A DNA stretch of 35,248 nucleotides from a virus. Taxonomy: Duplodnaviria > Heunggongvirae > Uroviricota > Caudoviricetes. Of the stretch, positions 14,914 to 18,440 are shown piece after piece. Numbering within the stretch: the first letter of the stretch is position 1; every line of letters begins with the position of its first letter. The notes beneath the pieces are model-generated. The model made no database searches and had not been told where the DNA came from. It was given only the letters and a program-made list of their open reading frames with translations. Position numbers and translations under genes: made by a program. The stretch is taken from IMG/VR virus record IMGVR_UViG_2563366961_000002, positions 1 to 35,248 of that record. One strand, given 5' to 3'.

Positions 14914-15735
14914 GGCTGGCTGATTCCTTATTGTGGGATAGCACTATCATACAATAAGTGGGTTAAAGGGAGAGCGTTACCGCCTGATATGCTGTATGAA
15001 TAACAACCAAATTTCAGGGGCGGAAAAAGATATGGGGGTACTTTTGGGGGTATCTATAAAAAATGAACAATAAAAAAGGCAACAAAAACAAAGCTTATCG
15101 CCTATGTGTATTGTTCCTATTATCGCACAATCAAGAAAATCAATAACTTAGCTTAACTTCTCTAAGAAATTGTATCTTCTGTTATCACTTACAAACGCCT
15201 ATACGTTGTTATGGGCTTTGGTAGTGTAACACGTATGGGCGAGTAGTTCCCAGGCTCAACCTCGTAACAAGTTCCTTTGAAGCTGGAAGACGTGCCACCG
15301 TCTCTAAACCTTCTACCAAAACTCTTAGCAAGATGTTCCACACCTGGCGCGGTGTCCAATGATGCTACACGTCGTGAGACGTTGCAGAGGATAAACAGGC
15401 TAAATGATGGGAAGAGTTTTAAGTGCAATAGTGGATCAAAGCCCACCTCTTCAAAACCTAACTTGATCGGGAAAGAATCAAGCTCTAGCACGGTTTCGTC
15501 CACCGGAGTACAACGGGTGCCTGATAAGAGAAGAACTGCTAAGACTTCATAGCTTTTGTGAAAAAGCCCTTTTAGTGGATACGCCTACGGCGCTTATTTT
15601 TTGGGGTAGCCCATCAAAGGCGCTTTATGGCTCCTATTGTCTTGAAAATGTATCTTTACTTGTATTGTGTTTTATGCGTAGTCTCCCTGTGTAGTATGTA
15701 ACTTGTTAATTTTCATATGAATACAGAGGCACACG

Positions 15736-15894
15736 ATGAAAAACATTGCAGCTATCAAACGTAATAACCGCAAGATTCACGCTCGTAAGTTCCTGTCTAC
15801 GCCAGAAGGAAAAGCCTGGCTAGAGCGTAAACAGAGAGAGAACGAAGAAAGAAAACTCCTTAATGAGTTGAAATGGCTTAGAGAGGATTTCTGA
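15736..15894 (+). CDS. small basic protein (52 aa), absent from ORF track
   Basis: ATG 6 nt after AGAGG; MKNIAAIKRNNRKIHARKF... Confidence 0.35.
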   Translation: MKNIAAIKRNNRKIHARKFLSTPEGKAWLERKQRENEERKLLNELKWLREDF

Positions 15895-16029
15895 AAATCT
15901 CCAGAACGCAACAGGACGCATTCTAACGCTATTTTCATTGCTTGGTATAGGGATGTATAGGTGATGTGTGTTTAATGCGTCTGTGCGCTTGTTTTGTGCC
16001 TTATTTTGCATTTTCATAATGCAGAAGAG

Positions 16030-18440
16030 AACACGGAAAACCTTAAAATTAATTATTGGGGTATTTAAGGGTATTTTCAGGTGATTTAAGGGTATTAAAC
16101 TTGATTTAATTGATTAAAATATAAACAGATAGTTGTGTATCTTATTGATTTATAAGGTTATTTTTAAATAAAGGTAAATAAAAAATAAATAGCCATAAAT
16201 AGCTATAAATACATCTAAATACCTATATCCCTTCCCTTATGGCTAGATTGCGAGAGGTGCTTAACGCGATTTTCAGCGCCCCCCGATCTGGAAAATCCAG
16301 AATCCCCAAATATCAGCAAGGAATTTTCTTGCGTAATCAACATCGTTTTTACCTATTAAATCATTACACAGAAAGCCTTTCTGTAATGTCTCTCACTAAA
16401 CTTTCACTAAACACGAGAATGATCGGTTTTATGTCGGATCAGATGCTAGAAACAGCACCACGTCTCACAAGGACTGTAAGCGATGAAACCAGTGTTTATG
16501 CGGGTGCAGGTCAAAATATAGGCCAAAATCAATTTAACATAATAAACGTAATATGCACTAAGGAATACATAGAACGCCTTGAGTTGATGTATCAGGGGGG
16601 AAAAATGATGGATTTTTTACGTAGGAGCACGAGAGGGCTTCTGTTGACTTTTGTATGCTATGAAACATAATTAAAGGTTTTTTTGTTTTTATTGTGTGAT
16701 GTAGTGGATTACACAGGGGAATAGATTAAATGGTGTTCTGTTTATACAGGTTTATTTGTTAGATCAACAATTTGGCATTTCTAAACAGATGTTTGAACGT
16801 TGCCAAATGTCTTGACAACACAAGAAAAGGGCTTGCTATGCCACGCATTACACGAAATAAGGCTGTAAAAACAAAATAAATTTTAAAATTTGCACAAACG
16901 AGAAAACTCGTTAAGAAACAAGCAGAACAATTTTTAGCCAACAATTTCTGATGGTGCTCTGTAGGCCGCACTACACAAGGATTTGCGAAAGTGATGTAAA
17001 AGTGAAGAAAGTAAGAATTGCACTTTTAAGCTACTTTTCATTGAATTTTTAGTATGGAATTACACAGGAATAAGTTAGGGATATTCTATGATTTACACAG
17101 GGAATATAGGGGATTATGGCACACACATAGAAAGGCATTACACAGAGTGAGTGCTATGTGATGATTGGTAGTAACGGTAGGTCATAGTGAGCTAGGGGGT
17201 AGGTCACTGTGAACTACAATAAGACTATTAATAAAACTATATTAGATTATTAATTAGATCATAATAATAATATTCTTTATATCTATATATATGATCTTTT
17301 GCCTTCCGGCGTTAGCTTCACTCTCTGGCAAGCAGCCTTACTCCGCTACCTTTCGGGCTTCGTGGCTGGCCCGTTCCGCTCACACCGAAAGCAAAGCGTT
17401 ACTTTCTTCGTGTAACTTCGTTGGCGGTAACGCCCACGAAGAAATCTATTGCGCTGTGCGCAGTAAGAGTAATCACCTAACCAATCATACTGATTGCTTA
17501 TGTGTTAACTCTCTCTAACTCTTAATTACCCTCCTACATTTAATAACTCTGTTATTCTCTGTAGTTGTGTAATTACTCGAAGAGAGAGCGGCTAAAGCTC
17601 AATTACACTCTGCTTTCCTCGTGTAATTTCACTAAGCCTCAATACAATTTCACTTCCTACATTCTGTAGTCGTGTAATTGTTTTCGGTGGAAAAGCCAGA
17701 GGCGACACCGAAAGAGAATTCTGATCTTATTAATCTTATCTATCTTAGTTAATCTTCTTACTTATCTTACTTACTTTATCTACTTTATTATTAATAATAG
17801 CTTTATAAGCTCTCTGTGTAGCTCTCTGACGCAAGAAACAGCATTCAGGAAGGGAATCACCTTAGAAAAGGTGTTCTTTGCGTCATAATGTGTTTTATGA
17901 AGGATTCAGAGGTGTTTCATAACAGGAATGTATAGAGAATACTTTAGGTAATTAAAAATAAGGGGTCTAAATGCTTCTCTAACAGCATTAAGCAGGGTAG
18001 GGAATGGAAACGCATTGCCTACATATAATAAACTCACTACAGGGCTTTACAGGGCGTTTTATAAAGTGACTCTCTGTTTTATATCTACAATCACCTTTTC
18101 ATATACCTAACAAATACAAAATAAGCCCCTTAAATAAGCCTCTGGCGAGCTAAACAGACATTACATAAGAGAATGTATTGCTTTTATCAAAACTTCGTTA
18201 GAACGCGTTTTAGAGCGTTTTAGCGGATAATGAAGAATAGCACTACACAGAAGAGCACGAATTGCCAAGACAAATTATAACATGCTGAAAAAGATCGATT
18301 TTTTCGAAAAGGGTATTGACAAATGTTTCTTTATATGTAATAATAGGTATTAGAGGGACAGAAAAACATTCTTCTCTAAATAATCAAAATCAATGCACTT
18401 TGAAGCCGTCAGGCTTGCAAGGTGTTTTATTTCTTTTAAC
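16030..18440. promoter_or_regulatory. AT-rich non-coding origin/control-like region with iterated motifs
   Basis: No convincing ORF; repeated TTTAAGGGTATT, ATAAATAG, YATTACACAG (both orientations), GGTAGGTCA and TTATCTT runs. Confidence 0.4.

Follow-up and report, generated by a model that had tools for sequence, protein, structure and literature searches.

We analysed the whole 35,248 nt of IMG/VR virus record IMGVR_UViG_2563366961_000002 (hereafter the window), in which an integrated element occupies approximately positions 15113 to 28462. The left end of this element, a control region of approximately 3.3 kb (about 15113–18457), probably serves a satellite of lytic myoviruses of the phi92 type (subfamily Stephanstirmvirinae) as a non-coding, cis-acting control hub. 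From left to right, the region consists of an attachment (att) site with an adjoining arm, a gene for a 52 aa protein, a copy of the boundary of a phage direct terminal repeat (DTR), a slot for a recombinase gene, arrays of ATTACAC sites, a replication origin, and a promoter followed by a leader that ends in a terminator.

By sequence comparison, the element is integrated at tRNA-Thr and consists of approximately 12.4 kb plus an insertion sequence (IS), IS2. The control region matches Escherichia coli chromosomes beside proA and tRNA-Thr (thrW). In strain KSC64 (locus L002) the homologous DNA starts immediately after the tRNA, and comparison with this junction places attL at 15120–15157 (plus strand), where the decayed 3′ end of the tRNA-Thr gene and about 20 nt more are repeated at 28445–28480 (attR). 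Metagenome copies free of IS elements are also approximately 12.4 kb long, and are bounded by the 20 nt repeat ACTCCTATTATCGGCACCAT. At 12.4 kb, and with an integrase and att sites of its own, the element is within the 7–20 kb expected of a phage satellite. Because the element begins at about 15113, the first part of the span that the original prediction had delimited (15000–18440) is neighbouring DNA (15000–15112), and the gene-poor stretch itself runs from 14914 to 18457.

Family searches of the element's ORFs (open reading frames) identified two small early ORFs, one of them weakly Arc-like; a 238 aa winged helix-turn-helix (wHTH) initiator (18866–19582) with matches to phrog_270, ‘replication initiation protein’ (E 1e-9), and to Pfam HTH_36 (25.5 bits, cut-off 25); a lambda-E-type major capsid protein; a tape measure, split by IS2; a Dit-like protein; and a tyrosine integrase (27023–28357). 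Several small ORFs had no matches. No terminase, portal, protease or tail tube/sheath was found by these searches among the ORFs of the window copy or of the relatives L057, L066 and L068. The region had been predicted to lie upstream of the early genes of a phage-like module, and the early genes do start at 18458, but the module is a satellite-like element and not an ordinary prophage.

The comparisons below draw on 30 related loci. Relatives occur at E. coli tRNA-Thr, tRNA-Gly and tRNA-Ser genes, in 20-odd IMG/VR proviruses and, more distantly, in Klebsiella and Serratia. They share an architecture made up of a cargo or integration arm, a minus-strand gene for a small recombinase, 1.1–2.4 kb without annotated genes, an early operon, capsid and tape-measure genes, and an integrase gene; the Klebsiella and Serratia members have the same architecture, with a non-coding region of 1.1–1.7 kb. 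Some part of the control region is carried by 1003 of 5426 complete E. coli genomes (approximately 18 %), almost all of these copies being chromosomal, and a scan of a genome collection with the capsid protein returned a single locus.

The link between the region and phi92-type phages is a 78 nt stretch on the minus strand (16238–16315), a copy of the boundary of the helper's DTR that we refer to as the phage-end mimic. A BLAST search against phage genomes gave one match, at 16242–16287 (46 nt at 95.7 % identity, E 2e-10), to about 46 Justusliebigvirus records, and a 40-mer within it (16248–16287, minus strand) is identical to phi92 318–357 at 40 of 40 nt. As the phi92 record annotates the left DTR at 1–343, the phage repeat ends inside this 40-mer, at ATCGGGGGGCGCTGAAAATCGCGTTA/AGCACCTCTCGCAA (a slash marks the boundary here and below), and the repeat end ...GCGTTA/AGCACC... 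falls between window positions 16262 and 16261. For the related phage BME3, a terminal repeat of 342 bp was determined independently by PhageTerm (PMC12210895).

Apart from the window, the exact 40-mer occurs in 10 related element loci, in phi92 and in phage Antha. Elements that lack it have another sequence in this slot, immediately 3′ of the recombinase gene: a match of approximately 80 nt (80–81 %) to Phapecoctavirus. This second version spans the repeat boundary of phage Mt1B1_P17 at the aligned GCGTT/AAGCAC, the terminal repeat of that phage being 328 bp as measured by comparing the two ends of its record. In a four-way alignment all sequences have TGATATTTG and TCGCGTTAAGCA in common, as boxes separated by about 38 nt, and the bases between and after the boxes agree pairwise, the window with phi92 and the element L005 with P17. 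One or other version is found in 27 of the 28 loci with enough upstream sequence, always in one orientation and 556–994 nt from the conserved block A described below. Because its version is shuffled with respect to both initiator type and alpha/beta lineage (see below), the mimic behaves as a separate module. The phi92-type version occurs in 425 of the 5426 complete E. coli genomes (approximately 8 %), always on the chromosome. The sequence identity of the mimic is established, and from it we infer a role in packaging.

The element proteins provide further ties to phi92. The Dit-like protein shares 60 % identity with phi92 gp135 (E 5e-83). The tape measure is approximately the size of gp134 (659 aa), with 71 % identity over the first 42 residues (86 % at the DNA level) and 30–39 % over the rest, and the genes for these two proteins are adjacent in the element and in phi92 alike. 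The capsid protein can be aligned with phi92 gp124 from end to end (21 % identity), and its gene comes after an ORF of approximately 120 aa, an order that mirrors gp123 (the decoration protein) and gp124 in phi92. A fragment of the initiator gene (18849–19263) has 92 % DNA identity to a ‘hypothetical protein’ gene of Mt1B1_P17 (MT496970.1, 20681–21038), which points to recent exchange between Mt1B1_P17-type phages and the elements. A 22 nt match between window 17950–17971 and the right-end non-coding DNA of phi92 is borderline (E 0.013 against approximately 75 kb of phage sequence, 8.5e-4 against the 3 kb junction) and is not relied on here.

An alternative is a decayed prophage, in which an ordinary, helper-independent origin and promoter survive and the phi92 match is a functionless relic of phage recombination. 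The origin and the promoter are real, phages and elements have clearly exchanged DNA, and IS elements break structural genes in several copies. However, a relic would hardly be kept at one place and in one orientation in all but one of the loci, in two versions that fit two phage genera on both sides of the repeat boundary, or retain 40 identical nucleotides while its flanks diverge. The full copies read contain no terminase, portal or tail tube/sheath, yet maintain a constant 12–14 kb architecture across genera, and we judge decay of a prophage to be quite unlikely.

The mimic might instead be a decoy or sensor, bound or cut by the terminase or another end-processing protein of an infecting phage, within a defence island whose diverged versions of the tape measure and gp135 would poison the assembly of tails. 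Of the two repeat boundaries one alone is present, the helper tail proteins that the element has in diverged form are exactly these two, and both the always-chromosomal phi92-type mimic and matches to the region as a whole are as frequent among E. coli genomes as given above; interference with tail assembly is a known defence strategy, as the title of PMC11364771 indicates. A pure defence island, however, would find a capsid protein, initiator, origin and integrase of its own superfluous, and all four have been kept. Satellites commonly both defend and spread, and a decoy function would be compatible with the satellite reading. As a full account of the region, a decoy is unlikely, though it deserves to be kept in mind.

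Three observations on the phages themselves can be recorded here. The repeat boundaries of phi92 (148270 and 343) and Mt1B1_P17 read GTTR/AGC (TGTTG/AGCC and CGTTA/AGCA), which may be the cleavage consensus of the terminase of this subfamily. The phi92 terminal repeat (at 60–100 and 265–300) and the 1.1 kb of right-end non-coding DNA (at 147400–147480) contain several TGATAATCATT-type copies, which resemble the E. coli Fur box. Lastly, several 146 kb records named ‘Campylobacter phage’ (MG065639.1, MG065656.1 and others) carry the phi92-type boundary and appear Justusliebigvirus-like, and their naming or host assignment may be wrong.

The suggestion that the region contains a replication origin is supported, at a specific place. 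The sequence GGTAGGTCA is present twice, as predicted (17176 and 17198), in two 22 bp tandem units on the plus strand (17176–17216, GGTAGGTCAyWGTGArCTAgggg), which are directly followed by a presumed DNA-unwinding element with a GC content of 12 % (17217–17290; 0.122). The identification comes from covariation of these iterons with the initiator. Across the family the initiator is a mosaic, its N-terminal DNA-binding part occurring in four types (N1 to N4) and its C-terminal part in others. The iteron arrays lie at a fixed position, about 150–300 nt to the right of block A, with an AT-rich stretch next to them in every type, and the iteron sequence differs with the initiator: the units in the window are specific to N1, and the counterparts are CCTACCTAGGAAATGAGTTCC for N2, CCCCCACAGAATTCTGTTA for N3 and GTAACGnnnnGTTACA for N4. 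At least two copies of the iteron of their own type were found in 11 of 12 N1 loci and in 8/8, 7/7 and 2/2 loci of the other types, respectively. N1 tandem arrays were found in none of the 17 loci with an N2, N3 or N4 initiator, and the only cross-type case is one composite locus. This pattern is strong evidence, at the level of sequence, that the initiator binds the iterons, and an origin at 17176–17290 is well supported.

The motif scan proposed along with the original prediction found neither a DnaA box nor an integration host factor (IHF) site at the origin: the DnaA box TTWTNCACA has no match in 16000–18400, and IHF consensus matches were confined to the att repeats (15138–15150, in attL, and 28467) and the rep gene. 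Such sites are common, but not universal, at iteron origins. Nothing points to the partition function suggested along with it: family searches detected no ParA/ParB-type domain in any ORF of the element.

Transcription of the early genes would start from a predicted sigma-70 promoter on the plus strand (18316–18344), in which TTGACA and AATAAT are separated by 17 nt and an upstream TG is present (11 of 12 consensus positions). It is the best consensus match in the region, and its −35 element, TTGACAAA, is invariant in 26 distinct relatives. The idea of a dense promoter region survives only in this form, as one strong conserved promoter at the right end, because consensus promoter matches overall are fewer than in shuffled sequence (6 versus 10.9). 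The promoter is followed by a leader RNA of approximately 90 nt (18351–18440, plus strand), comprising a 5′ hairpin (18354–18377), the unpaired conserved sequence TCTAAATAATCAAA, a 13 bp hairpin (18395–18425) and a U-run. The second hairpin and U-run form an intrinsic terminator (18395–18438) that precedes the ribosome-binding site of the first early gene (18458). Since the leader terminates before that gene, early-gene transcription must pass the terminator. The predicted fold has a free energy of −23.5 kcal/mol (z −3.1). Of its 12 consensus pairs, three, in the first hairpin, show compensatory changes; the outer terminator stem is invariant, and L006-type copies have lost one base from each side of the terminator stem. 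A promoter for the early genes that forms a module with its leader is well supported by sequence conservation, and we infer that the leader is a point of antitermination control or gives rise to a stand-alone small RNA.

Diverged members of the family align only in islands, namely block A, block B and the promoter–leader module. Block A (16930–17075) lies within a conserved left non-coding block (16702–17175, plus strand) that carries ATTACAC-type sites at 16708, 16847, 17059, 17092 and 17137. It is present in about 25 distinct sequences and matches L005 and L006 at 76–79 % in blastn, across sub-lineages with unalignable flanks. The 1 nt indels and the loss of the ATG among relatives show block A to be non-coding. 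Block B (18085–18260, plus strand; 18 distinct versions) is conserved in both sub-lineages, 60–230 nt upstream of the early promoter. It contains the invariant 20-mer AAAATAAGCCCCTTAAATAA (18118–18137), present in 13 IMG/VR loci, the palindrome CATTACATAAGAGAATGTATTG (18159–18180), CGTTTTAG repeats (18198–18222), and the overlapping CACTACACAG (18241–18250) and ACTACACAGA (18242–18251), a composition that is operator-like.

With a conserved promoter, a structured leader ending in a terminator, conserved blocks without ORFs, and a GC-richer segment full of hairpins (17291–17520), the region might be thought to serve mainly to produce regulatory non-coding RNAs, either a leader RNA resembling that of P4 immunity or longer structured RNAs from the conserved blocks. 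The hairpin-rich segment, which is non-coding and is found only in the alpha sub-lineage, has no Rfam match, and the fold of 17291–17480 is modest (−59 kcal/mol, z −2.1). Covariation is limited to the three pairs of the first leader hairpin, blocks A and B are conserved by sequence and not by pairing, and nothing in the region was matched by Rfam at E≤1. Since an RNA role of the leader is compatible with a satellite control region in any case, RNA production as the main function of the region seems rather improbable.

The non-coding character of the region follows from the behaviour of its ORFs among relatives. As had been predicted, the stretch is ORF-poor, with only short ORFs between the stop of the minus-strand gene at 14554–14913 and the first early gene. 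Across the whole region, RefSeq annotates one 52 aa ORF in a 99.8 %-identical strain. This basic ORF (15736–15894, plus strand), annotated in RefSeq relatives, is the sole credible gene and the one exception to the prediction of non-coding DNA: its frame is preserved in 16 relatives, where the single indel is 3 nt. The other ORFs are broken, the 143 aa ORF (16239–16670) being frameshifted in six of six full-length homologues, the 75 aa ORF (17291–17518) in 11 of 11 relatives, and the 104 and 91 aa ORFs (15189–15552) in three to four of 11; a 70 aa ORF likewise gains frameshifts or stops in close relatives. Searches of the region's ORFs of 52–143 aa against Pfam and PHROGs, with a threshold of E≤0.1, gave no significant match, only one of the 91 aa ORF to phrog_34339 (unknown function, E=0.015). 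The Rfam 15 covariance models had no match at E≤1 on either strand of 14000–19500, and a scan of the region for tRNA and tmRNA genes found none. The window copy does not contain conserved protein-coding genes with database homologues across the region. The description of the DNA as AT-rich holds relative to the chromosome (GC 33–42 % versus 49–53 % just upstream), but not relative to the coding part of the element (37.3 % versus 38.5 % GC).

Broken ORFs such as that at 16239–16670 might also be taken as a sign of decayed coding DNA without function. We consider functionless pseudogenes extremely improbable, given that the blocks are conserved across diverged lineages, the iterons fit the initiator type, the promoter–leader module is conserved, and a non-coding region of similar size is kept in Klebsiella and Serratia.

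The dense repeats on which the original prediction was built are largely present, in part in altered form. An AT-rich repeat field (15900–16237, GC 30 %), on the ‘unique-sequence’ side of the mimic, contains the two predicted copies of TTTAAGGGTATT (16064 and 16085) and two exact copies of ATAAATAG (16185 and 16195), the third copy claimed having one mismatch. The field also holds two more copies of TGAAAATnnCnTTA, a motif central to the mimic (15924–15937 and 16066–16079). The motif YATTACACAG, for which at least eight copies in both orientations had been counted, occurs exactly only twice, but its core ATTACAC has nine copies (six plus, three minus) between 16363 and 17678. In the whole window, 13 copies of ATTACAC were found versus 4.3 expected, a number reached by none of 100 shuffles, and six copies of TTACACAG versus 1.0 expected (0/100 shuffles).

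A second ATTACAC cluster (17533–17680) includes what had been seen as two direct repeats of about 40 bp; these are one split repeat (17533–17574 plus 17656–17679), with CCTACATT at 17533 and 17656 and CTGTAGTYGTGTAATT at 17559 and 17664, the first copy having 18 additional bases. The cluster also contains the 28 bp palindromic AATTACAC-N12-GTGTAATT (17602–17629). Exact TTATCTT, described as forming runs, is found just once (17762), within a T-rich and AT-rich run of TTATCT-type repeats on the plus strand (17720–17810; 91 nt, GC 21 %). Further to the right, GACGCAAGAAACAGC...GTGTTCTTTGCGTC forms an inverted repeat with 19 bp arms (17827–17885, plus strand) and a terminator-like inner stem (17858–17873).

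ATTACAC was considered as the iteron of the initiator (as YATTACACAG or its core) and rejected, as it does not covary with the initiator's DNA-binding domain. The family has an alpha version of the array, with 8–10 ATTACAC sites, and a beta version, with 4–6 ATTGCAC sites at matching places; because each version accompanies all four initiator types, the sites are not those of the initiator. Reading the sites as DnaA boxes was likewise rejected: they match the box in its 3′ seven bases only, its 5′ TT being absent. The first 50 kb of phi92 showed no enrichment of ATTACAC, and a role as a promoter motif of the helper is therefore not obvious. The alpha or beta version covaries with the whole gene block downstream of the initiator. 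This block encodes a 92 aa protein (19599–19877) with a helix-turn-helix-like segment, whose beta counterpart (24 % identity, E 4e-9) has a different putative recognition helix, and which is a mere candidate for the protein that binds the ATTACAC sites. The palindromic arrangement of the sites at 16363–16386, 17602–17629 and 18159–18180, the last in block B, suggests operators for a dimeric regulator.

The left arm (15158–15735) has no conserved ORF and is 97–100 % identical among thrW-integrated members of both sub-lineages; a match at 97–98 % to L004, L005 and L007 covers window 15115–15889. The arm is presumably an attP arm or integration module. The variable cassette (16316–16701) comprises 386 nt of non-coding DNA in the window, including the palindromic ATTACACAG...CTGTAAT (16363–16386), and is replaced in L004 by a segment (4193–4867) that holds a recombinase gene. 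In some relatives this slot contains a minus-strand gene for a serine recombinase of approximately 180 aa (L004 4201–4740, L005 4342–4893), with remote likeness (28–32 %) to the phi92 gp053 invertase, and in others a tyrosine recombinase gene of approximately 190 aa (L011 2919–3497, L066 2968–3585, L068 3138–3689), which is a non-homologous replacement.

The recombinase genes in the slot of most relatives raise the possibility that the region is a substrate for site-specific recombination, an invertible switch or a site for multimer resolution, with the small recombinase acting on the inverted ATTACAC sites. The 28 bp AATTACAC-N12-GTGTAATT sequence is laid out like a resolvase dimer site. A search among the 30 related regions, however, found no inverted segment (no minus-strand match of at least 40 nt), and thus nothing that would point to an invertible switch. 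Copies without a recombinase, including that in the window, still have the ATTACAC sites, and serine and tyrosine enzymes interchange, contrary to what co-evolved binding sites would lead one to expect. Recombination of this kind is very unlikely to be the function of the region.

These findings fit a model of the region as the control hub of a satellite. The element resides integrated at tRNA-Thr. Early transcription from the promoter at 18316–18344 would be damped by termination in the leader, and probably also by a protein bound to the ATTACAC/ATTACAT sites, both structures being present in the DNA. Infection by a phi92-like phage would then permit read-through and production of the initiator, which would bind the two 22 bp iterons (17176–17216) with which it covaries and open the adjoining stretch of 12 % GC. 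Helper terminase would recognise the 78 nt mimic (16238–16315) and cut at ...GCGTTA/AGC..., and the element DNA would enter capsids made of its own capsid protein and be joined to tails containing its own tape-measure and gp135-like proteins. In short-DTR phages (T7-like), concatemers are cut at the repeat boundaries during packaging, and satellites such as P4 carry the packaging site of their helper. Recognition and cutting of the mimic by the helper terminase is the simplest reading. The copying of only the inner boundary would be accounted for by a single-site cut and subsequent headful packaging, the capsid being a smaller one made from the coat protein of the element, or else by a role outside packaging, as a decoy or sensor.

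Several points weigh against this model. For the outer (left) repeat boundary, whether of phi92 or of Mt1B1_P17, no counterpart was found in the elements, and mimicry of the inner boundary alone leaves the unit-length cutting of DTR-type packaging unexplained. The best match to the outer boundary, 34 nt at 82 % in the coding region of other elements, was judged to be due to chance. That the terminase cuts at the repeat boundary is an extrapolation from DTR phages in general. No mimic is recognisable in the E. coli member L011, and the non-coding regions of the Klebsiella and Serratia members have no phage match. None of the 21 metagenome contigs that contain the 40-mer is a circular or free element, all those examined being integrated copies or fragments. 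Finally, the copy in the window has no recombinase and carries IS2 (23933–25206) in its tape-measure gene, and may be immobile.

Insertions of this kind are not limited to the window. An IS3-family element lies in the tape-measure gene of strain CH10508 (L057 11570–12798) and an IS3 in the capsid gene of KSC64 (L002 15467–16629), and the presence of different IS elements in structural genes of different strains suggests recurrent inactivation. The element also has a second unannotated gap upstream of the capsid gene cluster, of 345 nt in the window (20761–21104) and 876 nt in L057 (7346–8220), which may house a late promoter; it showed no clear match to phi92. Outside the element, the DNA between IS1 and its left end (8857–14913) is a second, unrelated mobile-element remnant in tandem at thrW, with genes for a P22-gp16-family ejection protein, a PerC-family regulator and a pRiA4b ORF-3-family protein. 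IS1 copies are located at 1–100 and 8095–8792, with IHF-consensus matches (68–80 and 8091–8103) in the IS1 ends. An IS1-mediated rearrangement is likely, because to the left of 8095 the DNA loses its collinearity with strain AF3, to which it is otherwise 99.8 % identical.

Beyond the control region itself, it is possible, though we stop short of calling it probable, that the element represents an undescribed and widespread family of satellites of virulent, approximately 150 kb Stephanstirmvirinae phages in Enterobacterales. Such a family would be the first known to capture DTR packaging, by means of a boundary copy, and would form chimeric particles with its own capsid and with tape-measure and baseplate-hub variants of its own; the region described here would combine its origin, immunity switch and packaging site. 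A search of the full-text literature, which left subscription journals mostly outside, turned up no paper that connects a satellite with phi92-, phAPEC8- or rV5-type phages, and no experiment on induction, replication or transfer of the element upon helper infection.

Phi92-like and phAPEC8-like phages are lytic, have a broad host range and are frequently isolated for therapeutic use against E. coli. Should the element be a satellite or decoy, the efficacy and host range of these phages would be affected, and chromosomal islands could be moved between strains. A satellite of this type would also be an E. coli counterpart of the pairing of PLE, an element that resembles a phage-inducible chromosomal island, and phage ICP1 in Vibrio, in a genetically tractable host. 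The conserved repeat-boundary sequence would provide a direct handle on DNA cutting and packaging in this phage subfamily, and the initiator–iteron pairs are a ready set of four orthogonal origin specificities.

Among known systems, PLE of Vibrio cholerae resembles the element in several respects: by description it is integrated, has a size of 12–18 kb, appears, like the element, tied to a virulent myovirus, and has an initiator of its own that acts on iterons within an extensive non-coding region; terminase and portal are missing from both. PLE differs in that it uses a large serine integrase and remodels the ICP1 coat protein, whereas the element is integrated at a tRNA gene with a tyrosine integrase, brings its own genes for capsid, tape-measure and gp135-like proteins, and carries a copy of the helper's repeat boundary. 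No sequence similarity to PLE was noticed, though none was looked for. The mimic may be comparable to the helper packaging site carried by P4, the satellite of P2, and by cos-carrying E. coli phage-inducible chromosomal islands (PICIs), whose DNA is packaged by the helper terminase, and a leader transcript that ends at a terminator recalls P4 immunity. The sites of P4 and PICIs, however, are the cos sites of cohesive-end phages, whereas the copied sequence in the element is one of the two boundaries of the short DTR of a 148 kb lytic phage, and the element lacks a P4-type primase-helicase, Psu/Sid and AlpA. Capsid-forming PICIs (cf-PICIs) also encode their own major capsid protein and are otherwise dependent on a helper, but they encode portal, protease, terminase and connectors and take only tails, whereas the element has tail proteins and neither portal nor terminase. 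At the level of replication, a wHTH initiator, specific tandem iterons and an AT-rich unwinding stretch are shared with lambda O/ori and with the RepA origins of P1, F and pSC101, and the exchangeable N- and C-terminal halves of the initiator are modular in the manner of lambda O. Unlike these lambdoid and plasmid origins, that of the element lies approximately 1.6 kb upstream of the initiator gene, not within or next to it, has no DnaA boxes and, in the window, contains only two iterons. Measured against the respective marker sets, the element fails to match P4-like elements, PICIs, cf-PICIs or PLE.

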